A stretch of DNA of 64,000 nucleotides. Source: Candidatus Kerfeldbacteria bacterium. Lineage in GTDB: Bacteria; Patescibacteriota; Patescibacteriia; SBBC01; CAIJZX01. The stretch covers positions 1,708-65,707 of the forward strand of contig JACPSJ010000004.1 in NCBI GenBank assembly GCA_016193315.1, read 5' to 3'. A program made the translations under genes and the position numbers. This document shows, piece after piece, positions 13,011 through 63,100 of the stretch. Under the pieces are notes generated by a model, which searched no databases, was not told where the DNA came from, and saw only the letters and a list, made by a program, of their open reading frames with translations. Numbering within the stretch: the stretch's first letter is position 1; each line of letters begins with the position of its first letter.

Positions 13011-16000
13011 GTGCCTCCATCACGCCCAGGTGTGGTCGGCGGCCCTTTACCTCGTCGCCGTAGCCTCCCTCGACTGGCCGACGGGCGGCTGGCATCAACC
13101 CGCCAGACTCGCCATCGACCATCGACGGCCCAGCGGGGTTTCCGGCAGTTGACCGAACAGCTGATGTCCACCGGCGCCGGCCGGTTTTCCGGCGTGCCCC
13201 ACACGGTCGCCGAAAGTTTTGGCTTTGCCCGGTTATTCCCGCTCCTGCCGACGCCCTGGCAGATGATTTATCTGGTCGGGACGGAACGCGAACGTGAGGT
13301 CGTGGTTCAGGGACTTGAAACGTGGTACCAAGGTTCTGAGCGGCGACCAATTATGGCTGTTCCGCCACTGACGCCCGCTCTTCTCGACCGCCTGCTCCGC
13401 CACGAACCAATCATTCTTGTCTGTCAACAAGCCGTGTTTGCCGATTCGCTCCCCCACCCGGCGGAGTTACCAAACCAATGGCTTATCCTACGGCCCGGGC
13501 CGCTCCCCGATCCCCCCGTCCCCGATCCCCGCCTCCGCGGGGAAGTCGAGGGTGCGGAGGTTGGGGACGGTCCAACCGGCCTCACCCGTCGCTTGGTTGA
13601 ACTGGGGTATACGCCGGTCAGCAGCGTTGAGCAAGCCGGCCAGTGGGCCAAGCGGGGTGAGGTGGTTGACCTTTGGCCGGCGGGCACGACGGCGGCCGTG
13701 CGCGTAGTCTTCAACGGCGGCGCCATCGACCGGCTCCAGGAGTGGCAGCCCGGCCAGACAAATTCTGGTCGGCAGCTGACAGAAGTTCGCTGTGCTCCAC
13801 TGGACTTCACCGGTGTTGACCCGCGCATTAGCTTGCTGTCCTATTTTCAGCCGATGCGGACGCTGATCGTCGTGCCGCGGCTCTCCCTGCTCGACTCCTT
13901 GCCGCGCGGTCGGGAAGCCGCCAAGCAGTACAAACAGGTTCTCCTCGAGCCGTTCGGTGACGAGGGCGTGGTCAAGCTCGATTGGCGGGCGGCCACTTTT
14001 TACCATCGCCAGTGGACGCTGGTGGTGAAAGATGTGGCGCACTGGCAGGCCGCCGGCTACACGATTGCCATCCACACCAACCGTCAGGCCGAATTGGTCG
14101 GCTTGTTCGAACGGCATGGCTTGGCAACTGATGGGCTAACGTGGCTCAACACGCCGGCTCTGACGCAAGGATTTATCGCTCCGTCCGAGCGCTACGTCTA
14201 CCTGACCGATGAAGAGTTGTTCGGTCGCGATCTCCGGGCCAAACAGAACCGCCGCCGGGTGGAGGATGTTTTCCTCAGTGAGTTGACGACTGGTGACTAC
14301 GTGGTCCATCTCGACCACGGCATCGGTCGCTTCATTGGCATGCGACTGCAACAGGTCAACGGCCACGCCAAAGAGTACTTCGTCCTCGAATACGCTGGAA
14401 ACGATAAACTCTACGTCCCGGTCGAGACGGCCGACAAGATCAACCGCTACTTAGGCAGCCCAAACCCAAAACTCCACAGTCTGTCCAGTTCGAGTTGGGC
14501 GACGGTAACGAAGAAGATTCAGGCTGATACCAGCCGCGTGGCCCACGAGCTGCTCGAGCTCTATGCCCAGCGCGAGCTGGCCCAGGCGCCGCGCTTGCTA
14601 CCCCACGCCGAGGCGGAAGAACGCCTGGCCGACCAATTTCCGTACGAGCTGACCGCCGACCAGGCCCGCACGCTCCAGGAGACGATGGCTGACTTGGAAC
14701 GCGACACCCCGTCCGACCGTCTCATTTGCGGTGATGTCGGGTTCGGCAAGACGGAGGTGGCCATCCGGGCGGCTTGGCGCGTCGTCTTGAACAAGCGGCA
14801 GGTAGCGCTCCTGTCGCCCACCACCATCCTGACCCAGCAACACTTTGACACCTTCCGCAGCCGGCTCCGGGGACTCCCGGTCAGCATCGGTGTCCTGTCC
14901 CGCTTTGAGTCAAAAGAAGAACAGCAGGCGGTTCTGGCGCAGTTGGCTGCCGGCCAGTTGGACATCGTCATCGGCACCCATCGCCTGCTGTCGGCCGACG
15001 TGAAGTTTAAAACCCTCGGTCTGATCATCGTCGACGAGGAGCAGCGTTTCGGCGTCAAGCACAAAGAGAAACTGAAAGCGCTGCGGACCGAAGCCCACGT
15101 CCTAACGCTGACGGCCACGCCCATCCCGCGGACGCTCAATTTCGCCCTGGCCGGCTTACGTGATATCAGCGTGATTGAGACTCCGCCCGAGGGTCGGCAA
15201 CCGATTGAAACCGCTATCCAACCCTACGACGCCGATCTCGTTCGCGAGGCCATCCAACGTGAGCTGCACCGGCATGGGCAGGTCTACTACGTACACAACG
15301 ATGTCGAGACGATCGATGCCGCTCGCGATCGACTCCAAAAGTTGGTGCCCACGGCTCGCTTCGGCATCGCCCATGGCCAGCTTGATGAACAACAACTGTC
15401 GCGAGTGATGGAGCAATTCGACAACCAGCGTCTCGACGTCCTCGTCGCTTCGACCATCATCGAGAACGGTCTCGATTTGCCCAACGTCAACACCCTGATC
15501 GTCGATCAGGCCAGCAAGTTCGGCTTGGCCCAACTCTACCAACTGCGCGGGCGGATCGGCCGTGGTTTCCGCCAAGCCTACGCTTACTTCATGTACCGAT
15601 CAGGGCGGGTGGTCGGAAAGCCACACAAGCGCCTGCAAGCGTTGCTCGAAGCCAAGGAGCTCGGTAGCGGTTTCCGCCTGGCCATGCGCGATTTGGAAAT
15701 CCGCGGCACCGGCAACATCCTCGGCAAGAAGCAGCACGGCCACGTCACCGCCATCGGTCTCAACCTCTATGCCCGGCTGCTGGCCCAAGCAGTCGAAGAA
15801 CTCCGGACCGGAAAACCAGCCCGTCCCAGCCGCGATATCCTGATTGACCTGCCGCTGGCCATCGCCATCCCGCTAGCCTTCGTACCGAGCGAGCCGAAGC
15901 GGCTCCGTCTCTACCAGCGCTTGGCCGCCCTCGAAACGGTCGAAGAACTGCACGAATTTCGCCAGCAGGAGTTCAAGCACCGCCCGCTCCCCGACCCGCT

Positions 16001-16340
16001 GGTCAACCTGCTCGAGGCGCTGGAGTTGAAAATCCTGGCCCAGGACACGCCGATCACCTCCATTCAGCAAACGAAAGTTACGCTCGAGGGCGTGACCAGG
16101 GAGAAAATCGTCGTCACCTTCGAGCAGATGATTACGCCGGAACAAATCGGTCAACTACTGAAACGGAATCAGGCCTGGGATTTCACGCCCGAATTCGTCA
16201 AGATCGACCGCGACTTGCTGGGACCGAAATGGCTCCAGGAGTTGAAACAGGTAGTCAAGATTTTCCGGGCCGTCAAGGAAACGGCGGACGGAAACGGCGG
16301 GCCGAGCCGCCACGAGCGCTTGTCAAAACCAAAATCCTAG
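13011..16340 (+). CDS. mfd: transcription-repair coupling factor Mfd
   Basis: CGDVGFGKTEVAIRAA Walker A, IVDEEQRFGV, helicase motifs and a TRCF C-terminal domain. Listed GTG start at 13011; in-frame ATG at 13164 (MSTGAGRF) may be the true start. Confidence 0.9.
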   Translation: MPPSRPGVVGGPLPRRRSLPRLADGRLASTRQTRHRPSTAQRGFRQLTEQLMSTGAGRFSGVPHTVAESFGFARLFPLLPTPWQMIYLVGTEREREVVVQGLETWYQGSERRPIMAVPPLTPALLDRLLRHEPIILVCQQAVFADSLPHPAELPNQWLILRPGPLPDPPVPDPRLRGEVEGAEVGDGPTGLTRRLVELGYTPVSSVEQAGQWAKRGEVVDLWPAGTTAAVRVVFNGGAIDRLQEWQPGQTNSGRQLTEVRCAPLDFTGVDPRISLLSYFQPMRTLIVVPRLSLLDSLPRGREAAKQYKQVLLEPFGDEGVVKLDWRAATFYHRQWTLVVKDVAHWQAAGYTIAIHTNRQAELVGLFERHGLATDGLTWLNTPALTQGFIAPSERYVYLTDEELFGRDLRAKQNRRRVEDVFLSELTTGDYVVHLDHGIGRFIGMRLQQVNGHAKEYFVLEYAGNDKLYVPVETADKINRYLGSPNPKLHSLSSSSWATVTKKIQADTSRVAHELLELYAQRELAQAPRLLPHAEAEERLADQFPYELTADQARTLQETMADLERDTPSDRLICGDVGFGKTEVAIRAAWRVVLNKRQVALLSPTTILTQQHFDTFRSRLRGLPVSIGVLSRFESKEEQQAVLAQLAAGQLDIVIGTHRLLSADVKFKTLGLIIVDEEQRFGVKHKEKLKALRTEAHVLTLTATPIPRTLNFALAGLRDISVIETPPEGRQPIETAIQPYDADLVREAIQRELHRHGQVYYVHNDVETIDAARDRLQKLVPTARFGIAHGQLDEQQLSRVMEQFDNQRLDVLVASTIIENGLDLPNVNTLIVDQASKFGLAQLYQLRGRIGRGFRQAYAYFMYRSGRVVGKPHKRLQALLEAKELGSGFRLAMRDLEIRGTGNILGKKQHGHVTAIGLNLYARLLAQAVEELRTGKPARPSRDILIDLPLAIAIPLAFVPSEPKRLRLYQRLAALETVEELHEFRQQEFKHRPLPDPLVNLLEALELKILAQDTPITSIQQTKVTLEGVTREKIVVTFEQMITPEQIGQLLKRNQAWDFTPEFVKIDRDLLGPKWLQELKQVVKIFRAVKETADGNGGPSRHERLSKPKS

Positions 16341-16348
16341 CCTATACT
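16320..16348 (+). promoter_or_regulatory. sigma70-like promoter TTGTCA-N17-TATACT for dprA, embedded in the 3' end of mfd
   Basis: Hexamers at 16320-16325 and 16343-16348. The same extended -10 module (gcctatacttctgac) is seen at the LCP promoter. Confidence 0.45.
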
Positions 16349-16359
16349 TCTGACCATCG

Positions 16360-17568
16360 GTGGCTCGGTCTTCGACCCACCGTTTTGCGGTCATCCAAAT
16401 GACTTCATCCCGGCCAGGGTCGTCACCTAGAATTACCATGCCGGCATATTACTCCGCCACCTACCATCGCAAAACACCGCCCCTCGCGGCTGTTCGTTTA
16501 GCCGCCGTCCATCAGCTGCCGATGGTCAGTTGGAAAACGCTCCGTCTCCTGGTTGATCACCGGCTGTACGATCGTCCGCTCGCGGATTGGTCAGCAGCCG
16601 AACTGGTGACCATTGGCGTCGACCCCCGCCTCGCCGCTCGCGTTATCGAACGGGCCTGGCAGCTCGATCTTGACCGCGCCGAGCAACAACTGAATTATCT
16701 CAGCGTGACGATCATGACTATTCATGACTCGGACTACCCGGCCCAGCTGAAGGAAATCGCCAGTCCGCCGTCAGTGCTCTACCTTCGCGGCTCGGTTGAG
16801 GCGCTGCAGACGCCAGCCTTGGCTGTGGTTGGCACCCGGCAGCCGAGTCCGCACGGGCAGGTCATCACGGAACGGCTGGTCGGGCCGGTGGCCCAGGCCG
16901 GGGTAATCATCGTTTCCGGCTTGGCGATCGGCATTGACGCCTCGGCGCATCGCGCCGCCCTCGCCGCTGCCGGCCGGACCGTGGCCGTGCTCGGGACCGG
17001 CATTGACCTGACCTACCCGCCGGAGCACCGGTCGCTGGTCGAAGAGATAATCGCTGGGGGCGGGACGATCGTCTCCGAATTTCCGCTCGGCAGTCCGCCG
17101 GAACGACACCACTTCCCGCAACGCAATCGGGTCATCGCCGGGCTGGCCAGAGCGACCATGCTGGTCGAAGCCGGCGAACGGTCGGGTGCCCTCATCACCG
17201 CCAAGTTCGCGGTCGAGTCCAATCGGGAAGTGTTCGCGGTCCCAGGCTCAGTCCTATCGCCTACCTCGGTCGGTCCGAACAACTGGCTGAAGCTCGGCGC
17301 GCGGCCCACGACCTCCAGCGCCGATCTCTTAGAGATTTACGGAGCTGGTCAGGGCTCGTGGCTGACCGCGCCAGCCCGGATCGCGCCGGCGAACGAAATC
17401 GAGGCCACCCTCCTGTCACTCCTGACCGTCGAACCAGTCCATATTGACGAGTTGGTGGAAAAGAGTAGACTGGACACCAGTATTGTGTCGGCGACTTTGG
17501 CATTGATGGAAGTCAACGGCAAAGTTCGTCACCTGGGAGGAATGTTTTACACTCTTGAAGCCCCATGA
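16360..17568 (+). CDS. dprA: DNA processing protein DprA (Smf)
   Basis: N-terminal SAM-like region, Rossmann-like core (...VSGLAIGIDASAHRAAL..., GTGIDLTYP) and a C-terminal winged-helix tail. 4-bp overlap with topA; dprA-topA synteny is conserved. Confidence 0.8.
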   Translation: MARSSTHRFAVIQMTSSRPGSSPRITMPAYYSATYHRKTPPLAAVRLAAVHQLPMVSWKTLRLLVDHRLYDRPLADWSAAELVTIGVDPRLAARVIERAWQLDLDRAEQQLNYLSVTIMTIHDSDYPAQLKEIASPPSVLYLRGSVEALQTPALAVVGTRQPSPHGQVITERLVGPVAQAGVIIVSGLAIGIDASAHRAALAAAGRTVAVLGTGIDLTYPPEHRSLVEEIIAGGGTIVSEFPLGSPPERHHFPQRNRVIAGLARATMLVEAGERSGALITAKFAVESNREVFAVPGSVLSPTSVGPNNWLKLGARPTTSSADLLEIYGAGQGSWLTAPARIAPANEIEATLLSLLTVEPVHIDELVEKSRLDTSIVSATLALMEVNGKVRHLGGMFYTLEAP

Positions 17569-20162
17569 CCTCCGGCCTGGTCATTGTCGAATCACCAACC
17601 AAAGCGAAGAAGATCGCCGAGTTCCTCGGAACGAAGTACGACGTCCAGTCGTCGTACGGGCACGTCCGCGACCTGCCGAAGAGTGCGATGGGTATCGACA
17701 TCGACCACGGCTTCCAACCGGAGTACGTCGTCCTGGAGGAAAGTAAGAAAACGATTGCTGACCTCAAGCGCCGCGCCGCCCGGGCTTCAGCTGTCTTCTT
17801 CGCCACTGACGAGGATCGCGAGGGCGAGGCCATTTCTTGGCACCTGGCCGAACTCCTGAAGATTCCCCCGGACCACCTCAAGCGCATCGTCTTCCACGAA
17901 ATCACGTCGAAGGCCATTCTGGCTGCCATGGCCGAACCGCGCGGCATCGACCTCCGCCTGGTCAAAGCGCAGGAGGAACGCCGCCTGCTGGACCGGCTCT
18001 ACGGCTACGAAGTGTCGCCGATGCTGTGGCGGAAAATCCGTCCCGGCCTATCCGCTGGTCGGGTGCAGAGTGTCGCCACTCGGCTGCTGGTGGAACGAGA
18101 GCGCCAACGCCTGACCTTTCGCTCCAGCTCGTATTGGGACATTGTTGGACGCTTCGCCCCTAATGGCCAGTCGTTCGAAGCTCGCCTCCAAGCCATTGCC
18201 GGCCGAAGCGTAGCCACCGGCCAAGACTTTGATCCGACCAGCGGCCAGCTGAAGCACCAGCGCGTTCAGTGGCTCAAGGCGGATGAGGCCAAGCGACTAG
18301 CCGAGCAATGGCGCTCCTCGTCGGCCACCGTTGAGGGCGTTGACGAAAGCCCGTTTACCGAGCGCCCCTCGCCGCCGTTCACCACCAGCACGCTGCAACA
18401 AGAAGCCAACCGCAAACTCCGTTTCTCGGCCCGGCGGACCATGCAGCTGGCCCAGCAGCTATACGAAAACGGATACATCACCTATATGCGGACCGATTCG
18501 ACCATCCTGTCGGATGAAGCATTGACGGCGGCGCGGCAATGGATCAAACAACAATACGGCCCGCCGTATCTGACCGACCAGCCGCGGCAATTCACCACCA
18601 AAGTCAAGAATGTCCAGGAGGCGCATGAGGCTATCCGCCCGGCCGGTGAACAGTTCCAGCCATTGGAGAAAGTGAAATCTGAACTGGAGACGGATGTCTT
18701 CCGCCTTTACGAACTGATTTGGAAACGGACGGTCGCCTCGCAGATGACCGAGGCTCGCGGCCGACGGATGAAGGTGGCCGTCGCCCTCGGCACCGGACTG
18801 TTTGTAGCCCAAGGAAAAACCTACGATTTCGTCGGCTTCCGGCGGGCCTATGTTGAAGGCAGCGACGACCCCGCCGCCGAGTTAGCGGAACGAGAGATGG
18901 TCCTGCCGCCGGTCAAACCAGGCCGATCTCTGACGGTTGATGAGCTGGCGCCTACGGAACACATCACTCAGCCGCCGCCGCGGTTAACGGAGGCCACGCT
19001 GGTCAAAGAGCTGGAAACACGCAGCATCGGTCGGCCAAGCACATACGCGGCGATCATTGAGACGATTCTCCGCCGCGAGTACGTCTTCAAGCGCGGCCCG
19101 ACCCTGATCCCAACATTTACCGCCTTCGCCGTGGTCAACCTGTTGGAACAATACTTACCTTCTTTTGTCGACTATGCCTTCACGGCCACCATGGAAGATC
19201 GGCTCGATGCCATCGCCCTTGGCCAGGCAGACGATAAAGCTTACCTCCGGCAGTTCTACTTCGGCGACGGCATGCCTGGTTTGAAGCCGACGTTGGAACA
19301 CGTTCGGGATACGATCGACCCGCGCCTGACGAGCGGGGTGACGATTGGGACGCTCGAGGACCAGCCACTTGAAGTCAGAATCGGCCGCTATGGACCATTC
19401 CTCCGTTGGAACGGACAGACCGCCCGTCTGCCCGAGGACCTGCCGCCCGATGAGCTGACGATCGATCGAGCCTTGGCCCTACTGAAAGCCAGCCAGGCGG
19501 CTGACCAGCCGCTCGGCGTCGACCCCCACAGCGGGCAGAACGTCTACCTCAAACTCGGCCGCTTCGGGCCGTACGTTCAGCTGGGCGAAACACCATCCAC
19601 CCCAAAAGATGAAAACGGCCAGCCGACGAAGAAACGGCGACCGAAAAAGGACCAGTCCAGCGGGGCCAACAAACCGAAGATGGCTTCGCTTCTGCCCGGC
19701 ATGTCGGCCGAGACCGTGTCGCTCGAGCAGGCGCTCCAGCTGTTGTCATTACCCCGCACGGTCGGACTCCACTCACCAGATCAACAGCCGATTCTGGCCG
19801 CCAATGGCCGGTTCGGCCAATACATCAAGTGGGGCCAGGAGAGCCGAAGCATCCCCGACGGTCAAGACGCGTTAACCATCACGCTCGAGCAGTGCTTGGA
19901 ACTTCTGGCCCAAGAAAAGACTCGTGGGCGCGGGCGCCGCGTGTCTAAGACGCTGAAGGAACTTGGGTCGCATCCACAAACTGGCCTACCCATCAAGATC
20001 CTCGACGGTCGCTACGGCCCGTACGTTACTGACGGCACGGTCAATGCCACCATACCGTCCGGCACCGCACCGGAGTCATTGACCATGATCGAGGCCGTGA
20101 CTCTGTTGACCGAACGGGCCGCCCGGCCGAAGCGGCGCCGGACAATGCGTCGCGGCCGCTAG
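17565..20162 (+). CDS. topA: DNA topoisomerase I with a Lys-rich basic C-terminal tail
   Basis: TOPRIM N-terminus (VIVESPTKAKKIAEFLG), catalytic-Tyr region (YITYMRTDS) and a basic tail (KKRRPKKDQSSGANKPK) rather than Zn ribbons, as in actinobacterial TopA. Confidence 0.95.
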   Translation: MTSGLVIVESPTKAKKIAEFLGTKYDVQSSYGHVRDLPKSAMGIDIDHGFQPEYVVLEESKKTIADLKRRAARASAVFFATDEDREGEAISWHLAELLKIPPDHLKRIVFHEITSKAILAAMAEPRGIDLRLVKAQEERRLLDRLYGYEVSPMLWRKIRPGLSAGRVQSVATRLLVERERQRLTFRSSSYWDIVGRFAPNGQSFEARLQAIAGRSVATGQDFDPTSGQLKHQRVQWLKADEAKRLAEQWRSSSATVEGVDESPFTERPSPPFTTSTLQQEANRKLRFSARRTMQLAQQLYENGYITYMRTDSTILSDEALTAARQWIKQQYGPPYLTDQPRQFTTKVKNVQEAHEAIRPAGEQFQPLEKVKSELETDVFRLYELIWKRTVASQMTEARGRRMKVAVALGTGLFVAQGKTYDFVGFRRAYVEGSDDPAAELAEREMVLPPVKPGRSLTVDELAPTEHITQPPPRLTEATLVKELETRSIGRPSTYAAIIETILRREYVFKRGPTLIPTFTAFAVVNLLEQYLPSFVDYAFTATMEDRLDAIALGQADDKAYLRQFYFGDGMPGLKPTLEHVRDTIDPRLTSGVTIGTLEDQPLEVRIGRYGPFLRWNGQTARLPEDLPPDELTIDRALALLKASQAADQPLGVDPHSGQNVYLKLGRFGPYVQLGETPSTPKDENGQPTKKRRPKKDQSSGANKPKMASLLPGMSAETVSLEQALQLLSLPRTVGLHSPDQQPILAANGRFGQYIKWGQESRSIPDGQDALTITLEQCLELLAQEKTRGRGRRVSKTLKELGSHPQTGLPIKILDGRYGPYVTDGTVNATIPSGTAPESLTMIEAVTLLTERAARPKRRRTMRRGR

Positions 20163-22424: not shown

Positions 22425-23333
22425 TCATCCTCCGCGGAGACGACTGAGAAGGTGCTGGAATTCCTCGTCGGAGTAAAACTCGATACTAACTGAGCCGCGG
22501 TGCTCCCGCTTGGTGATTTTCACTTTGGTCCCAAAACGTGACCGCAGTTCGTCTTCAATGGCGCGCACAGTTGGATCGATCACGCGCCGGAGATGACGAC
22601 GGACAGTCGTTTGCTGACCCAGGTGAGCGGCCGCTCGGACCGGCAGCTGCTGTTTGAGAATTTGATCGAAGAGTCGCTGTCGTTCCTCGGGTGTAATGGC
22701 CGTCAAAAGTATTTTCGCATGGCTGGCCGTAATCGTGCCTTGCCGCAGCGCCTGCTGCATGGCCGACGGTAAGGCTAGTAACCGGACCGCATTCGCAATG
22801 GTTGTGCGGCGCTTGCCTACTTGGCGGGCGATCTCATCTTGGGTCAAGCCAAACTCCTCGCTCAGCTGCTGGTAGGCCAACGCTTCCTCAATTGGGTTCA
22901 GATCCTGACGCTGGACATTCTCGACAATCGCTAATTCCAGCTTCTCCTGCTCCCGCGATTCGCGGATGATGGCCGGCACCGCCGCCAGCCCCAGCCGCTC
23001 GGCCGCCCGCAGGCGCCGCTCGCCCGCAATCAGTTGGTACCGATCGCCAACCCAGCTGACCACCAGCGGCTGGATGATGCCGTGTTGCCGAATGGAATCA
23101 ACCAGCTCGTCGAGCGTTTCATCGTGTGTACGACGACGAGGTTGGTGCGGGTTCGGATCGATCAGCTGCGGCGGGATGTCGAACAGCCGTGATCGATCGG
23201 GCCGATCGGTGCTGGTGGCAGTCGTGGTAGCTGGGGGCGGCTTGGCTGGTAGAACCGGTGGTGGCGTGGCCACCGCTGACTTGCGTGGGATCAGCGAGCT
23301 GAGGCCGCGGCCGAGTGGTCGTTCAGATATCAT
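22425..23333 (-). CDS. parB: chromosome partitioning protein ParB/Spo0J
   Basis: ParB box GIIQPLVV...YQLIAGERRLRAAERLGL, an HTH and a C-terminal dimerisation region. Confidence 0.9.
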   Translation of the reverse strand: MISERPLGRGLSSLIPRKSAVATPPPVLPAKPPPATTTATSTDRPDRSRLFDIPPQLIDPNPHQPRRRTHDETLDELVDSIRQHGIIQPLVVSWVGDRYQLIAGERRLRAAERLGLAAVPAIIRESREQEKLELAIVENVQRQDLNPIEEALAYQQLSEEFGLTQDEIARQVGKRRTTIANAVRLLALPSAMQQALRQGTITASHAKILLTAITPEERQRLFDQILKQQLPVRAAAHLGQQTTVRRHLRRVIDPTVRAIEDELRSRFGTKVKITKREHRGSVSIEFYSDEEFQHLLSRLRGG

Positions 23334-24097
23334 CGCGGCGTGCTGTGAATCTCGTCCGCGAGCTTGCGGTAGGCCTTGGCGCCGGGTGAGTTGGGGTCGT
23401 AGTGAAGGATCGGCTGACCGTAGGATGGCGCTTCGGCCAAGCGCACGTGCCGCGGGATGACCGAGCGAAAAATCTGGTGGGGTGGAAAGTAGTGGTACAA
23501 TTCAGCCAGCACCGCCTCGGCCAACCGGAGGTCGGGATCGTACATGGTCAGAACCAAGCCCAGAATACTCAATTCATCATGCAGGTTCTGTCTGACCAAG
23601 TCGATCGTCTCCATCAGCTGGCCCAATCCTTCCAGCGAGTAATATTCCGCTTGCACTGGGATGAGGACTTCGTCGGCCGCCGCCAAGGCGTTGATCGTTA
23701 GCACCCCGAGCGACGGCGGACAGTCGATAAAAACATAGTCGTAATCATTGAGGATCTCCTCCAGGTTATCACGGAGCAAGAATTCACGTCGCTCCAGCGG
23801 GACGAGTTCGACGTTGGCACCAGCCAAGGACAGCGTGGCTGGTACCAAGTGGTACCGTTCGATGTTGGTCGGGTGAATGACCTCGCGGATCGACACTGGC
23901 GAGACGAGCATTTCATACACGCCCTGGGTCAAGTTCTTATGATCCAGACCCAAACCGCTGGTGGCATTGGCCTGCGGGTCGAGATCAATCAGCAACACCC
24001 GATGCCCGGCCCGTGCCAGGTACGCGCCGAGGTTGATGGCGGTAGTCGTCTTGCCGACTCCGCCTTTCTGGTTGACCACCGCAATAATGCGCGCCAT
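23330..24097 (-). CDS. parA: ParA/Soj partition ATPase
   Basis: MARIIAVVNQKGGVGKTTTAINL deviant Walker A. Likely start ATG at 24097; the listed ORF extends to 24283 through a non-homologous leader. Confidence 0.9.
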   Translation of the reverse strand: MARIIAVVNQKGGVGKTTTAINLGAYLARAGHRVLLIDLDPQANATSGLGLDHKNLTQGVYEMLVSPVSIREVIHPTNIERYHLVPATLSLAGANVELVPLERREFLLRDNLEEILNDYDYVFIDCPPSLGVLTINALAAADEVLIPVQAEYYSLEGLGQLMETIDLVRQNLHDELSILGLVLTMYDPDLRLAEAVLAELYHYFPPHQIFRSVIPRHVRLAEAPSYGQPILHYDPNSPGAKAYRKLADEIHSTPR

Positions 24098-24197
24098 AGA
24101 GTGTCTGGACTGGATGAGTATACAATTTTCTCGACCGCTCGACAACTTGGTGCGTTGACAACCAGCCGCTCGTTGACTACACTGCATACTGATCTCC

Positions 24198-24281
24198 TGC
24201 CGCCGTGGTGGAACTGGCAGACACGCAGGACTCAAAATCCTGTGGGGGCAACCCCATGTCGGTTCGATTCCGACCGGCGGC
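24198..24281 (+). tRNA. tRNA-Leu(CAA), type II, long variable arm, no encoded CCA
   Basis: Hand-folded. Acceptor gccgccg/cggcggc, anticodon stem cagga/tcctg with loop CTCAAAA, variable arm gggggcaacccc, T-loop TTCGATT. Confidence 0.85.
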
Positions 24282-24332
24282 ACATCCTAAAACGGGTGCG
24301 TCGACATCAAGTAACAATGCTATACTCCTCCC

Positions 24333-28754: not shown

Positions 28755-28915
28755 GGAGAGAGGGCCGGAACGAAAAGATCCGCCCCACATCTAACGATTC
28801 GAGCGGAGCTCTCCAACGCCTCGCGGCGGTCGGCCGCCACAACTGAAGCAGTTTAGTTGCTTTCGCTTCGCGAATTCGCCTCGACCCAGGCTAAGTTAGT
28901 GATTTGGTAGCAGGG

Positions 28916-28984
28916 GGCGGATTTTCCCGCGGAGCGGGATCCCGCCTACTTTTTTAGAACAACAGGAGCGGGAGAACCGCTGGC
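28916..28984 (-). repeat. GC-rich bipartite hairpin repeat, copy E1
   Basis: Part 1 ggcggattttcccgcggagcgggatcccgcc (hairpin tcccgc-n-gcggga); part 2 gagcgggagaaccgc (gcgg-gagaa-ccgc). Homologous to copies at 29090, 30764, 54485, 58113 and 62511. Confidence 0.6.
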
Positions 28985-29020
28985 ATGTGGCCCGTGTTCT
29001 AAAGTCACTTGTTTGTTACT

Positions 29021-29067
29021 GGTGGCAGGGGTGGGATTTGAACCCACGACTAAAGGCTTACCTGCCC
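29021..29067 (-). other. tRNA-like minihelix: 5' acceptor strand GGCAGGT + 12-nt linker + T-arm (GTGGG-TTCAAAT-CCCAC) + 3' acceptor CCCTGCC + encoded ACCA; D and anticodon arms absent
   Basis: Hand-folded from the reverse complement of 29021-29067; 6/7 acceptor pairs. Not the 3' end of the neighbouring tRNA-Met, which has a different T-loop and acceptor. Confidence 0.45.
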
Positions 29068-29089
29068 GCCGAGCCAACTGGTGCCAGAG

Positions 29090-29161
29090 GCCGGATTTTC
29101 CCGCCGCAGCGGGATCCCGCTAGTTTCTCATTGATCAATTGAGCGGGAGAACCGCCGACCC
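29090..29161 (-). repeat. GC-rich bipartite hairpin repeat, copy E2
   Basis: ggccggattttcccgccgcagcgggatcccgc ... gagcgggagaaccgccgacc. Lies between tRNA-Met and the minihelix. Confidence 0.6.
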
Positions 29162-29185
29162 GGGGCCTATCTGCCCGCCAGGCCG

Positions 29186-29257
29186 TACCAGGAGTGGGGA
29201 TCGAACCCACGACCTCGGGCTTATGAGTCCCACGCTCTACCACTGAGCTATCCTGGC
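29186..29257 (-). tRNA. tRNA-Met(CAT), elongator-type or Ile2-type; cannot be distinguished by eye
   Basis: Sense: GCCAGGA TA GCTC AGTGGTA GAGC G TGGGA CTCATAA GCCCG AGGTC GTGGG TTCGATC CCCAC TCCTGGT A; G1-U72 wobble. Confidence 0.8.
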
Positions 29258-29326
29258 CTGGCCTGGCGGGCGAATGAGTCCCCCCCCGCTGTTTGGCGGG
29301 ACTCTACCGGGCTGAGCTACTCTGGC
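29258..29326 (-). pseudogene. degenerate partial tandem copy of tRNA-Met (acceptor + D-arm GCCAGAG-TA-GCTC-AGCCCGGTA-GAGT, then a disrupted anticodon/T region) immediately 5' of the intact gene
   Basis: The reverse complement of 29258-29326 reads as a decayed copy of the tRNA-Met 5' two-thirds (D-arm, then ...ACTCATTC GCCCGCC...). Confidence 0.4.
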
Positions 29327-29409
29327 TCGTCTTGGCGGGCGGGGGCTGACCTAACCTAGCGCCTTTTGGCGGGAGAAACTGTAACCCGAATGAAAAGATA
29401 GCGCAAGTA

Positions 29410-30597: not shown

Positions 30598-30722
30598 GTG
30601 CTTAGTATACCAAACATTTCGGTCTCGATCACTGTTCAGCCGAACTGCCAGGGAGCCACGTAAGATGGAATTAACATAACCAGAATTCTGCCCACGACCC
30701 GTGTCTTGGGTACAACCCTGGT

Positions 30723-30748
30723 TGCAGGAGGGGGAGTCGACCCTGGCC
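30723..30748 (-). pseudogene. degenerate duplicate of the 3' end (T-arm + acceptor) of the adjacent tRNA-Met(CAT) gene; has acquired ...TCCTGCA-ACCA
   Basis: tgcaggagggggagtcga-ccctggcc versus the intact tgcgggagggggagtcgaaccccctgcc. Confidence 0.45.
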
Positions 30749-30763
30749 AGCGGCGACCCGCCA

Positions 30764-30803
30764 CCGGCGGCTCGCCGGACGTTCTCCCGCCATGCGGCGG
30801 GAC
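30764..30803 (-). repeat. GC-rich hairpin repeat, copy E5 (part 1 only)
   Basis: ccggcggctcgccggacgttctcccgccatgcggcgggacc. Confidence 0.5.
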
Positions 30804-30884
30804 CACTTCTGGCCTTCTCCTCCCCTCGAACTTATGTCCAAGCAAAGTCCTCTCCATGAACACCCTTCCTGGAGAAAACCTTAC

Positions 30885-30956
30885 TTGCGGGAGGGGGAGT
30901 CGAACCCCCTGCCTGCGGATTATGAGCCCGCCGTGCATCCGTTACACTTCCCCGCG
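30885..30956 (-). tRNA. tRNA-Met(CAT) with initiator-like features (C1xA72 mismatch; GGG/CC in the anticodon stem)
   Basis: Sense: CGCGGGG AA GTGT AACGGAT GCAC G GCGGG CTCATAA TCCGC AGGCA GGGGG TTCGACT CCCCC TCCCGCA A. Confidence 0.7.
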
Positions 30957-57866: not shown

Positions 57867-58112
57867 AATTTCAACTGCATTGTCTCAAAAAGAAAGGGAA
57901 AAATCAAGTCAGCCCCGTTTAGAGACGAGACTGGTTTGCGTTCTCGGAAGGGATGATTCAGGATACTGGATACATCATCCGTTTTTCTGGTATCAGCTTT
58001 CGCCACTAACGGGGTCAGCGGTCAGCAAACTAACGTCACGACGGCGGGACGACCAACCCCGCACCATTTTCGGACAGTCTCCATCAATACCAAAAACGCT
58101 GGTGGCTCCCAG

Positions 58113-58206
58113 GGTCGGACTCTCCCGCCTCGATGGCGGGGTCCCGCCTGCCTCACCCTAGATTCATAGGGGCGGGAGAACCGACAACCATTGCCTTAAT
58201 CCCGCC
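58113..58206 (-). repeat. GC-rich bipartite hairpin repeat, copy E3
   Basis: ggtcggactctcccgcctcgatggcggggtcccgcc ... gggcgggagaaccgacaaccattgccttaatcccgcc. Part 2 is near-identical to copy E4. Confidence 0.55.
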
Positions 58207-58398
58207 CCAGTTCGGGAACGCACATCAAGCAAAGCGCTCGTGGCTCGCCACTCCGGTCTAGAACCAACCCTTTGAAGGGTTTTGTGAGACTTTAGCGATT
58301 TTCAGGAGGAATTGAGACAAATGAGACACTACCTAAGGGGTCTGTCTTGTGTCTCAAAACCCAAGCACTTTAAACAATTTTACTCGGGTGGACAACTC

Positions 58399-59307
58399 TT
58401 AACTCGGCCTGAGCGTCCCGCTGAATATCTCCCAGGCCAGCAGAGACTTAGCTACCAGACTCAAGATCATATATGCCCGTTCCCCGTAGAGATAATCCCG
58501 CCACGGACCAACTTTTTTATACTGCAAGACCATGTTCAGCGCAAAGATAGAAAAGGTGGCAAAGATCGTAAAGACAATGGCATAGACGAATCCTGGAACA
58601 TTTACGCCCGCGCTGCTGATGGCCTTCCCGAAGTATGTAAAAATCACCAACCACGGTATTGCACCCGCAAAGACGCCAATCCAATATGCCAGCCAGCTCG
58701 TTTTCGTTGTGGACTGATTGTGCACCTCCATGACCAGTCCCATCAGATTCATGATCGCATTGAGCGAGAACAGGGCGGTCAGCAACCAGAAATCATAGAC
58801 GCCGCAGAGCATCGCGATGATCCAGATCATGACCGACGAAGACAGCATGTATTCAATCCAGCGCAGCTTGTTCATGCCTTTGGCAAGATTCGCTTCATAC
58901 CAATGGCGGAGTGGTCCGGCTAACAGGAAATGAGCGAGGGCTGAGAGAAAAAGAAAGACCGCGACGGCCGGTCCAATGCGCAGGTCAAACCAATGTTCCG
59001 GCGTTGGGGCGATGCCAAACGTCGGATTCGTCGGATCAATCCGCAGGTACGACGTGACCACGGGTAAAGACGAATCATTGCTGATTGCTACCATAACCAC
59101 GCCTTGAATAAAGTGCAGGGCGGCCATTGACCAGTTCCAGGCCCGTAAGGAGTGAAACCGCAATTCAGCAGGTGTGCTCGTGCCCATCGTGTTCATATGG
59201 TCGTAATTACTGTTTGTTTCATAGTCCGATTGTAGCATGTTTGCCACGCATTGAGCATCCGCTGTCGCTTGCGCCCTGGCGCCACTATTGATGAATGCTC
59301 CGCCCAA
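58399..59307 (-). CDS. heliorhodopsin (inverted-topology 7-TM retinal protein)
   Basis: Strong match to heliorhodopsin hallmarks: ...NKLRWIEYMLSSSVMIWIIAMLCGV..., ...PGFVYAIVFTIFATFSIFALNMVLQYKKVGPWRDYLYGERAYMILSLVAKSLLAWEIFSGTLRPS (Schiff-base Lys in SLVAKS). True start is probably downstream of the listed one (MNTMG...). Confidence 0.85.
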   Translation of the reverse strand: MGGAFINSGARAQATADAQCVANMLQSDYETNSNYDHMNTMGTSTPAELRFHSLRAWNWSMAALHFIQGVVMVAISNDSSLPVVTSYLRIDPTNPTFGIAPTPEHWFDLRIGPAVAVFLFLSALAHFLLAGPLRHWYEANLAKGMNKLRWIEYMLSSSVMIWIIAMLCGVYDFWLLTALFSLNAIMNLMGLVMEVHNQSTTKTSWLAYWIGVFAGAIPWLVIFTYFGKAISSAGVNVPGFVYAIVFTIFATFSIFALNMVLQYKKVGPWRDYLYGERAYMILSLVAKSLLAWEIFSGTLRPS

Positions 59308-62423: not shown

Positions 62424-62510
62424 TTCAAAATTTCCTAGTCTCCCTTTCGAAGGTCGACCTGCCCCGCACTACAACGAAATGATTTTGGGCAGGGATCTCG
62501 TGGCTCCGGA

Positions 62511-62650
62511 GGTCGGATTCTCCCGCCGTAGCGGCATCCCGCCAGTATTACTATTTTCTTTTTGGGGCCGGAGAATTCTCGCCCGAACCCAAGTTTATCC
62601 TGAGCATAGCGAAGGATGGTTCGGGAGACAACCATCGCCTTAATCCCGCC
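62511..62650 (-). repeat. GC-rich bipartite hairpin repeat, copy E4 (part 1 62511-62543, 79-nt insert, part 2 62623-62650), abutting a tRNA-Asn 3'-half fragment
   Basis: ggtcggattctcccgccgtagcggcatcccgcc ... gggagacaaccatcgccttaatcccgcc. Confidence 0.55.
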
Positions 62651-62652
62651 AG

Positions 62653-62722
62653 CTCCGAGGGCGAGATTCGAACTCGCAACCAATCGGTTAACAGCCGATT
62701 GCTCTCCCTGGGCGCCGCGGCT
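62653..62722 (-). pseudogene. tRNA-Asn(GTT) fragment: intact anticodon arm + T-arm + 3' acceptor, degenerate 5' acceptor/D-arm
   Basis: Sense 3' portion ATCGG CTGTTAA CCGAT TGGTT GCGAG TTCGAAT CTCGC CCTCGGA G; the 5' part (CCGCGGCGCCCAGGGAGAGC) cannot form a D-stem. Confidence 0.5.
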
Positions 62723-62835
62723 CCTGCGGAGCATCGCGTCACCCGTTCGCGCGGCCGCACGTGAAGCAGTTCACGTGCTAGCTTGCAGCTGCCGCGCGAA
62801 CCCATTTCGCTACCCAGAAGCCTAAGCCCACCCAG

Positions 62836-62907
62836 CTCCGGGGGCGAGATTCGAACTCGCAGCCAATGGATTAACAGTCCACTGCTCTACCGTTGAGCTA
62901 CCCCGGA
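62836..62907 (-). tRNA. tRNA-Asn(GTT)
   Basis: Sense: TCCGGGG TA GCTC AACGGTA GAGC A GTGGA CTGTTAA TCCAT TGGCT GCGAG TTCGAAT CTCGC CCCCGGA G. Flanks extend acceptor complementarity to about 15 bp (cacccagctccgggg / ccccggagctgggtg). Confidence 0.85.
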
Positions 62908-63100
62908 GCTGGGTGGTCCAAGCCCAGAAAACAGATGAGAACGCCGGCAGTATAGACTCTTTTCTGTCGCCCGTCCAGACCCTGGCCGATCCAGTTGCCT
63001 CCCAAAACAGATATGGTATACTCGATTCTGCTGTACAGCTAACGAGTCTTCCTCTCGTAGGTTCAGGCCGGTAAGCGTGGTCGAGTACAGCTCTTAGTAA

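Follow-up and report, generated by a model that had tools for sequence, protein, structure and literature searches.

The tRNA-Met locus at positions 28900-29400 of the window analysed here (64,000 nt of contig JACPSJ010000004.1, from a metagenome-assembled genome (MAG) of Candidatus Kerfeldbacteria, Candidate Phyla Radiation (CPR)/Patescibacteria) raises a key question: are the tRNA-like pieces surrounding its intact tRNA gene the remains of older tRNA genes, or are they small RNAs of a new kind? All parts of the locus lie on the minus strand, and they are described here in the direction of that strand. The order given in a preliminary description was reproduced with every element that it listed: a degenerate tRNA-Met copy, an intact tRNA-Met gene, a repeat designated E2, a 47-nt minihelix and a repeat designated E1. 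Alignments show that all of these parts are paralogous pieces of tRNA-Met genes. We consider it probable (about 0.6) that one working tRNA-Met gene lies here amid the wreckage of older tRNA-Met paralogues, together with a small GC-rich palindromic element, and that the fragments are relics and not new small RNAs.

The intact tRNA-Met(CAT) gene (29185..29257) was called by ARAGORN and scored 66.4 bits with Rfam model RF00005. Its acceptor strands are GCCAGGA/TCCTGGT, the discriminator is A, and CCA is not encoded. The gene is abutted on both sides by an inverted repeat (I1) with a perfect 12-bp core, consisting of the left arm GCCCGCCAGGCC (29260..29271) and the right arm GGCCTGGCGGGC (29173..29184), and in the minimum free energy (MFE) fold of the whole 501-nt locus these flanks are paired (z = -4.7). 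An analogous flank with two compensatory changes, CCACCCAGC/GCTGGGTGG, was found at another intact gene of the window, tRNA-Asn1. There the leader and trailer lengthen the acceptor stem by 9-10 bp (62835-62925, minus strand), as do AGCGCAaTGC/GCAgTGCGCT at the tRNA-Asn gene of L006, a locus of another genome considered below (2100-2215); the sequence differs between the two organisms and the pairing is retained.

Upstream of the intact gene lies copy 1 (29274..29326), which repeat families D4 and D14 and alignments identify as what is left of the 5' part of an older tRNA-Met gene, namely, the acceptor strand GCCAGAG, the D arm, a 16-nt palindrome CCCGC-CAAACA-GCGGG (29300..29285), the anticodon-stem strand GGGGA and CTCAT, in which the CAT anticodon is retained. 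The degenerate copy of the preliminary description is thus present, and it is preceded by a second, more strongly decayed one, copy 0 (29341..29377; family D4), which comprises the leader CCCGCCA, the acceptor 5' strand and the 5' side of the D arm and is 77% identical to the same part of copy 1 over 31 nt.

Downstream of the intact gene, E2 (29079..29172), delimited by repeat families, alignments and folding, corresponds to the 3' part of an older tRNA-Met gene. It begins with a decayed anticodon loop, followed by the stem 3' strand GCCCC, the variable loop GGGTC, the T-stem strand GGCGG and TTC; a 50-nt insert (29148..29099) separates TTC from AAAT, after which come CCGGC, the acceptor strand CTCTGGC (29089..29083), A and an encoded CCA (29081..29079). 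Could copy 1 and E2 be two halves of the same gene? The copy 1 strand GCCAGAG pairs with CTCTGGC of E2 at 7/7 positions, and relative to the intact gene pairs 6-67 and 7-66 are altered on both sides, while pair 27-43 is G-C in place of U·G. By count, the same copy 1 strand pairs at 5/7 positions with the corresponding strand of the minihelix and at 4/7 plus a wobble with that of E1; E2 agrees with the 3' end of the current tRNA-Met at 5/8 positions of the acceptor region. Excision of three interruptions (the 16-nt palindrome after the D arm, the block with the intact tRNA and the T-loop insert) yields a reconstructed outer gene with a complete cloverleaf, a CAT anticodon and an encoded CCA. 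Most simply, copy 1 and E2 are the halves of one older, CCA-encoding tRNA-Met gene. To describe all units together, the intact gene, copy 1 joined to E2 with the inserts removed, the minihelix, and E1 with its insert removed were aligned to tRNA-Met. In this four-unit cloverleaf, 88.5% of cells are paired versus 77.5% in shuffles, a proportion reached by none of 500. Two-sided changes affect six pairs (shuffles, 4/500). A third level of nesting, formed by copy 0 and the minihelix, was considered and rejected: the copy 0 acceptor, GCTAGGT in an ungapped alignment, pairs poorly with CCCTGCC.

The minihelix unit (29020..29078) was delimited by families D1 and D2, Rfam, alignment and folding, and the minihelix proper (29066..29020) has the form GGCAGG-13 nt-GTGGG TTCAAAT CCCAC-CCCTGCC-A-CCA, with a canonical T arm at 29047..29031. 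The acceptor and T-arm fold proposed for it from the start was confirmed (MFE -16.5 kcal/mol, z = -2.64; of 200 shuffled sequences, 3 folded equally well). It scored 21.8 bits with the Rfam tRNA model (threshold 29), the D and anticodon arms being aligned as deletions, and received no ARAGORN call. Thus, tRNA search tools do not fold it into a full tRNA, and no four-arm cloverleaf above 29 bits is present; its homology to part of a tRNA is collinear, and its stems still pair. The claim that the tRNA-Met 3' end was not copied here is right only in part: the sequence has diverged (acceptor, 4/7), but it is nevertheless a paralogue, with agreement at 14/17 positions of the T arm and at 17/21 from the 3' side of the anticodon loop to the T-stem. 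The sequence before the T arm, GCGGGC-AGGTAAGCCTTTAGTC, aligns to the anticodon arm and variable loop of the intact gene, GTGGGACTCATAAGCCCGAGGTC, as does that of E2, so that the 22 nt preceding the T arm represent a decayed anticodon arm and variable loop. Therefore, the idea of a tRNA from which both the D and anticodon arms were deleted is not quite accurate: the anticodon arm is decayed but present, and the parts that are missing are the D arm and the 5' strand of the acceptor. The partner strand GGCAGG derives from the decayed anticodon-stem region. On these alignments, the minihelix is a fragment comprising the 3' two-thirds of a diverged tRNA-Met paralogue.

The minihelix and E2 are also paralogous to each other (left flanks 72% identical over 36 nt, D1; right flank 17/21 by count) and differ by a 50-nt block located exactly between TTC and AAAT, where the minihelix has the T-loop TTCAAAT. 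The third 3' fragment, E1 (28905..28996; repeat families, alignment and fold), has the T-stem AGCGG/CCGCC, a 49-nt insert (28973..28925) at TTC|AAAT, the acceptor strand CCCTGCT, A and CCA (28907..28905). Termination by an acceptor 3' strand, A and CCA is therefore shared with E1 (CCCTGCT-A-CCA) and E2 (CTCTGGC-A-CCA; D5). The preliminary description had called E1 and E2 hairpin repeats. They are real repeats (families D5, D6, D9 and D11; nhmmer E = 4e-11 and 5e-13), although not plain ones, as both are tRNA 3' fragments carrying a T-loop insert and a CCA end. The folds of the fragments are more stable than those of shuffled sequences (z from -1.9 to -2.95).

Another important question is what the insert itself represents. 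It is located between C56 and R57 of the T-loop and spans ~50 nt with the architecture TCCCGC(C)-spacer-GCGGGA|TCCCGC(C)-3..7 nt-GCGGGA. In the Met cluster, the gap within the second hairpin measures 3..4 nt. Between E1 and E2, the arms are 100% identical and the spacers unrelated. The same terminal arms, TCCCGC(C)/(G)GCGGGA, were found in E1, E2, two Asn-type copies of the window (E58 and EAsn), L006, a metagenomic locus (L012), copy 1 and near the fMet fragment described below. The arm sequence CCCGCC...GGCGGG also flanks the intact tRNA-Met, closes the copy 1 palindrome and adjoins the fMet fragment. In the window, CCCGC-N2-9-GCGGG has 8 matches versus 2.7 expected, five of the eight at tRNA-derived loci. 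In every E copy, excision of the insert restores the 7-nt T-loop of its own tRNA family, namely, Asn-type TTC|GAAT (EAsn, L006) and TTC|GAGT (E58) or TTC|AAAT in the Met and fMet cases. The base helix varies with its pairing retained (pair 2-73 is UA, CG or GC), and in one unit of L006, L006(ii), CCCCGCA/TGCGGGG replaces TCCCGCC/GGCGGGA. Covariation in the E core did not exceed the shuffle control; this test is uninformative because the arms hardly vary. In our reading, the insert that recurs at tRNA-derived sequence is either a small insertion element of palindromic structure or a hairpin module under sequence constraint.

Several other interpretations of the E elements were tried and set aside. 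A conserved acceptor 5' strand is not a feature of the family, being present in L006(i), weak in E58 and absent from E2, E1 and L012. An intrinsic terminator is contradicted by the lack of a U-run after the hairpins, which have a T-run before and an A-run after them, the reverse of a terminator; the terminator scan at the elements returned only a weak 5-bp hairpin in E1 (tRNA strand) and a match to GCGGGATCCCGC (opposite strand). The likeness of TCCCGCC-AAA-GGCGGGA-AAATCCG to type I-E CRISPR repeats was rejected since there is no array structure. Finally, a role as an RNase P external guide for the neighbouring tRNA is no more than speculation: the complementarity stops short of the leader sequence, and RNase P already acts on the tRNA itself.

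Elements of the same type occur elsewhere in the window, again on the minus strand. EAsn (62501..62651) is a tRNA-Asn-derived 3' fragment with the T-loop insert that ends in CTCCGGA-G-CCA. It lies directly 3' of tRNA-Asn2 (62721..62652), which itself follows tRNA-Asn1 (62907..62835). E58 (58103..58210), which ends in CCTGGGA-G-CCA, is an orphan Asn-type copy, since an intact tRNA is missing upstream of it. A variant lacking the T-loop insert lies downstream of tRNA-fMet (30956..30885) at 30719..30814 (families D2, D3 and D12); in it, a GC-rich hairpin block precedes 23 nt copied from the 3' end of tRNA-fMet, GGG-TCGACTCCCCCTCCTGCAA, plus CCA; over these 23 nt, it differs from the gene by one deletion and one substitution, and its acceptor agrees at 7/8 positions. 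No such trailing element was found at the tRNA-Leu of the window. Five tRNA genes were called in the window (four intact ones and the decayed tRNA-Asn2), and CCA is encoded by none of them but at all six fragment ends. The restriction of CCA to fragments fits descent from older CCA-encoding genes, and an encoded CCA also occurs in single tRNA genes of related lineages. The common denominator of these cases is a tRNA 3' fragment, usually with an encoded CCA, just downstream of an intact, CCA-less gene of the same identity; in many of them, the conserved palindromic insert is present at position 56/57 of the T-loop.

In the Asn-type copies, a 5' module, GGCGGGA-TTAAGGCGATGGTT-GTCGG, matches a tRNA-Asn of the L006 relative L016 from the anticodon loop onward. 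The surroundings of EAsn show further features. tRNA-Asn2 (62652-62730, minus strand) is a pseudo-tRNA with 40 bits in Rfam and a destroyed D arm; just upstream of it, GCGGCGCCC equals the anticodon-stem 5' strand of the L016-type tRNA-Asn, and the continuation, TTAAGGCGATGGTT, lies in EAsn. This may be a second case of one tRNA gene nested within another. Between tRNA-Asn1 and tRNA-Asn2, a long perfect GC-rich hairpin (62750-62815, minus strand) is formed by GTTCGCGCGGC...GCCGCGCGAAC enclosing CACGTGAA...TTCACGTG. E58 is situated ~190 nt downstream of a heliorhodopsin gene (58399-59307, minus strand; Pfam PF18761, E = 3e-96).

Is this arrangement unique to the Kerfeldbacteria genome? E-pattern scans of one genome per species, plus metagenomes, revealed L006 and L012 as the only true tRNA-linked relatives, and two viral scans yielded nothing or chance matches within coding regions. 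L006 is labelled Gammaproteobacteria, while its flanking flavodoxin-like gene is closest to those of Daviesbacteria and Microgenomates, and its source is probably a CPR organism. It contains a tRNA-Asn followed by three tandem units, each ending in ATCCGA(N)-CTCCGGA, with CCA on the last only. L012, detected in the metagenome scan and derived from an AT-rich organism, has a tRNA-fMet followed by an E element in which the last 8 acceptor positions are those of the tRNA (8/8) and CCA follows; its arms are GC-rich and its spacer is AT-rich.

Contigs of L006 relatives were found via the flanking gene, whose protein in L016 and L017 is 88% identical to that of L006. In both of them, the tRNA-Asn T arm and acceptor equal the ends of the L006 E elements and the 5' module is kept, and a clean 227-nt segment with the E core is absent by comparison with L006. 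An internal hairpin is retained between L006 and L016 by compensatory change. A further contig, L024, has a single tRNA-Asn nearly identical to tRNA-Asn1 of the window, with an encoded CCA and no trailing element. The 227-nt difference and the plain tRNA of L024 indicate that the element is dispensable. Thus, at least two further uncultured lineages possess elements of the same type, which can be present in one organism and absent from its close relatives. The three independent short-read assemblies represented by L016, L017 and L018 break in or just after the tRNA-Asn trailer region, which suggests that this region is repetitive or variable in the respective populations.

Away from tRNAs, the near-palindrome TTTTCCCGC-N-GCGGGATCCCGC-N-GCGGGAAAATCCG was observed in MAGs of Armatimonadota, Omnitrophota, Uhrbacteria and Staskawiczbacteria (loci L002, L004, L005 and L001 in Armatimonadota MAG DATKXU01, and L007, L009, L011 and L008). 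In Armatimonadota it is situated inside AAATCCG-type short repeats, and a 30-mer there is identical to the E element of L012; this MAG has four dispersed copies of the motif. For the E-element motif, no description was found in the papers searched.

How could such a locus have arisen? A block of ~110 nt, comprising the intact tRNA-Met between its 12-bp GC-rich inverted repeats, would break up the older tRNA-Met gene near its anticodon loop. We favour nested insertion of this inverted-repeat-flanked tRNA cassette into the older paralogue; a less parsimonious route would be tandem duplication followed by two deletions. The same gene family would also have given rise to the minihelix and E1 as additional 3' fragments. 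Co-transcription of the entire cluster with the tRNA is probable, and the intact tRNA-Met would be released by RNase P and 3' processing enzymes, with CCA having to be added post-transcriptionally. The fragments would then be by-products with no decoding role, leaving the intact tRNA as the sole decoding product. In this reading, the locus records repeated rearrangement of tRNA genes in which a small GC-rich palindromic element, perhaps a mobile one, took part.

A number of observations weigh against this view. The split of the outer gene is not clean: copy 1 contains GCCCG, readable as its own anticodon-stem 3' strand, a sequence that the left arm GCCCGCCAGGCC overlaps, and tandem duplication with deletion may therefore be the origin instead. 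ARAGORN calls the reconstructed outer gene tRNA-Met and does the same for control joins, so the call is illustrative and non-discriminating. The TTC|RAAT junctions show no target-site duplication, and no transposase was found for the insert. The arms are near-identical even across organisms while the spacers are unrelated, a sign of purifying constraint that is not expected of dead DNA, and one 30-mer of the insert is shared exactly by L012 and three contigs of the Armatimonadota MAG, on which no tRNA is nearby. Of 10 fragment ends from the different lineages, 8 carry CCA, the exceptions being L006(i) and L006(ii). Four copies of the Asn-type module GGCGGGATTAAGGCRATGG, from three lineages, show no variation, although the stems of real tRNA-Asn differ, and the flawless T arm of the minihelix with its 6-bp acceptor-like stem likewise points to constraint. 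The conserved arms with variable spacers, the invariant Asn module and the flawless T arm may reflect a functional family of CCA-ended RNAs or a sequence-specific protein or recombination site.

Could the fragments therefore be products in their own right? They might belong to a family of structured, CCA-ended RNAs that are excised from tRNA transcripts and have a function of their own; such RNAs could serve as processing punctuation for RNase P/RNase III, as decoys for acceptor-end enzymes or, in the case of copy 1 and E2, as pieces of a split tRNA. An acceptor/T-arm minihelix with a 3' RCCA end is the classic minimal substrate of bacterial RNase P, and the minihelix matches this form. The conservation of the insert arms and the Asn-type module across lineages with spacers free to vary points the same way, as do the frequency of CCA on fragment ends compared with the called tRNA genes of the window, an acceptor 3' strand that tracks the neighbouring tRNA (L012 and the fMet fragment), base-helix pairing retained through changes (pair 2-73 and L006(ii)), the compensatory change between L006 and L016 and the shuffle-beating folds. 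However, most E copies lack a consistent acceptor 5' strand, the E core shows no covariation above the control, L006(i) and L006(ii) end without CCA, tRNA-Leu has no such element, the insert destroys the T-loop motif and no Rfam family matches; moreover, close relatives differ in the presence of the element, the tRNA of L024 being plain. We regard this explanation as unlikely. Its boldest version is decidedly improbable: a CPR family of CCA-ended top-half RNAs in which a conserved GC-rich double hairpin replaces the T-loop, located 3' of tRNA genes and matched to the acceptor strand of the neighbour. Such RNAs could have a role in tRNA processing or quality control, and copy 1 and E2 could constitute a split tRNA in a bacterium, its halves joined through a GC-rich helix of leader and trailer and its anticodon loop harbouring a complete tRNA.

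Site-specific integration offers a different source of tRNA fragments, and the preliminary description had already considered a relic of an integrase attachment (att) site. In this scenario, repeated integration into tRNA genes at the anticodon loop, T-loop and 3' end left attR-type scars, and the element bodies were later deleted; with every integration, the tRNA gene would acquire a new 3' part, and the previous one with its CCA would be displaced, as in the accretion of cis-mobilisable elements. The geometry agrees, with CCA-bearing 3' fragments lying downstream of CCA-less intact tRNAs of the same identity, in the same orientation and often in tandem. The fragments either start at or close to the anticodon loop or are breaks in the T-loop, and these two loops are classic sublocations of integrase crossover in tRNA genes. 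CCA is restricted to displaced ends and, in L006, to the last of the three. The fMet fragment repeats 23 nt of the tRNA 3' end in direct orientation, and the displaced ends of L006 match the L016 tRNA-Asn allele, suggesting replacement of a resident gene. Other observations speak against this scenario. Pfam scans of 20 flanking open reading frames (~15 kb) revealed only housekeeping genes near the locus, with no integrase, excisionase, transposase, reverse transcriptase or cargo, and a gene-context check of the L006 flanks likewise revealed no integrase or element DNA. The distance from tRNA to first fragment is only 5-40 nt, the fragments have diverged, all three fragments of the Met cluster carry CCA, no duplicated 7-nt overlap exists at the two T-loop insert junctions, and the viral-contig scans contained nothing related. 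In addition, simple attL/attR geometry does not produce a 5' fragment such as copy 1 upstream of a complete tRNA. We accordingly hold att scars to be rather improbable. An assembly artefact is hardly credible: the sequence comes from a MAG and repeats are prone to mis-joining, but the copies are diverged from each other and not identical, the locus lies within a 130-kb contig with ordinary genes around it, and the same type of element occurs in independent assemblies from other samples. Overall, the parts are thus best regarded as relics of tRNA genes, as had been suspected, although their anatomy differs from that first proposed and no integrase is in evidence.

The surroundings of the locus are those of an ordinary chromosome, with mfd, dprA, topA, parA/parB and genes for an inositol-phosphate synthase and a BlaR1-like protein within ~15 kb. 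parA/parB (22425-24283, minus strand) adjoin tRNA-Leu, and topA, dprA and mfd are close (13011-20162, plus strand); this is a normal chromosomal region, possibly near the origin. The next-best homologue of the 395-aa gene just upstream of the tRNA-Met locus is only 53% identical. Directly after its stop codon, a candidate sigma-70-type promoter, TTGCGC-17 nt-TACAGT (29378..29406, minus strand), was recognised by eye; it agrees with the consensus at 8/12 positions, under the cut-off of the promoter scan, and is therefore a weak candidate.

Which known systems does the locus resemble? Among archaeal disrupted tRNAs, multiple-intron tRNAs in Thermoproteales, split tRNAs in Nanoarchaeum and scattered fragments in Caldiarchaeum have been described, the last of these being attributed to a mobile element (PMC4390854). 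Similarities to these are interruptions near 25/26, in the anticodon loop and at 56/57 of the T-loop, GC-rich complementary sequences adjoining the halves, and orphan fragments near intact genes. In contrast, the organism studied here is bacterial, as shown by sigma-70 domains and the C1xA72 mismatch of its initiator tRNA; the junctions form a continuous long helix with one bulged U and no bulge-helix-bulge; one interruption holds a complete tRNA gene; and rejoining of the halves is without evidence. Bacteria are not known to have a splicing endonuclease. The attL/attR duplications of tyrosine integrases and cis-mobilisable accretion share with our locus a partial tRNA 3' copy downstream, sometimes in tandem, and differences between relatives; unlike them, it combines spacings of tens of nucleotides, diverged copies and a 5' fragment upstream with the lack of an integrase, element body and duplicated overlap.

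Repetitive extragenic palindromic (REP) sequences and REPINs, miniature inverted-repeat transposable elements (MITEs), palindrome-associated IS200/IS605 elements and cyanobacterial small dispersed repeats resemble the insert in its length (17-50 nt), GC-rich inverted arms with a variable middle, fixed context (TTC^RAATCC) and occurrence of the same arms at several junctions of the locus and in unrelated genomes. Unlike REP and MITE elements, however, the arms in this window cluster at tRNA-derived loci instead of being dispersed, neither a target duplication nor a transposase or REP-associated tyrosine transposase (RAYT) was found, and the unrelated spacers between copies argue against recent transposition. 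With the tRNA-like domain of transfer-messenger RNA (tmRNA), YrlA, mascRNA and the minihelix substrates of RNase P, the minihelix shares an acceptor-like stem on a canonical T arm and an RCCA end. It differs from these RNAs in being demonstrably a fragment of a tRNA-Met paralogue, and no tag reading frame was seen and no Ro60 gene was present among the flanking genes scanned. ARAGORN detected no tmRNA, nor did Rfam in a permissive search of the locus (E <= 10) or at gathering thresholds across the window; at the locus and related loci, Rfam returned tRNA hits and chance-level matches only, with no YrlA or other family. The nearest analogues, namely, the disrupted, split and scattered tRNA genes of Archaea, att duplications and REP/MITE elements, all fail to fit as the family.

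Disrupted, nested and fragmented tRNA genes of Archaea are a well-known puzzle that bears on tRNA evolution and on the targeting of tRNA genes by mobile elements. In Bacteria, to our knowledge, the only generally recognised interruptions of tRNA genes are self-splicing introns and integrase att duplications. The locus contributes two features to this picture: a bacterial tRNA gene apparently split by a complete, inverted-repeat-flanked tRNA gene, and a palindromic insert of conserved sequence that recurs at position 56/57 of the T-loop in fragments from three tRNA families and at least three uncultured lineages. If the fragments are relics, they would record a process of rearrangement or insertion that targets tRNA loops without a recognisable recombinase, and they would serve as a warning that a tRNA-like hit with CCA in a CPR genome may be wreckage. 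In the case that the fragments are functional, a new class of tRNA-derived RNA would be at hand.

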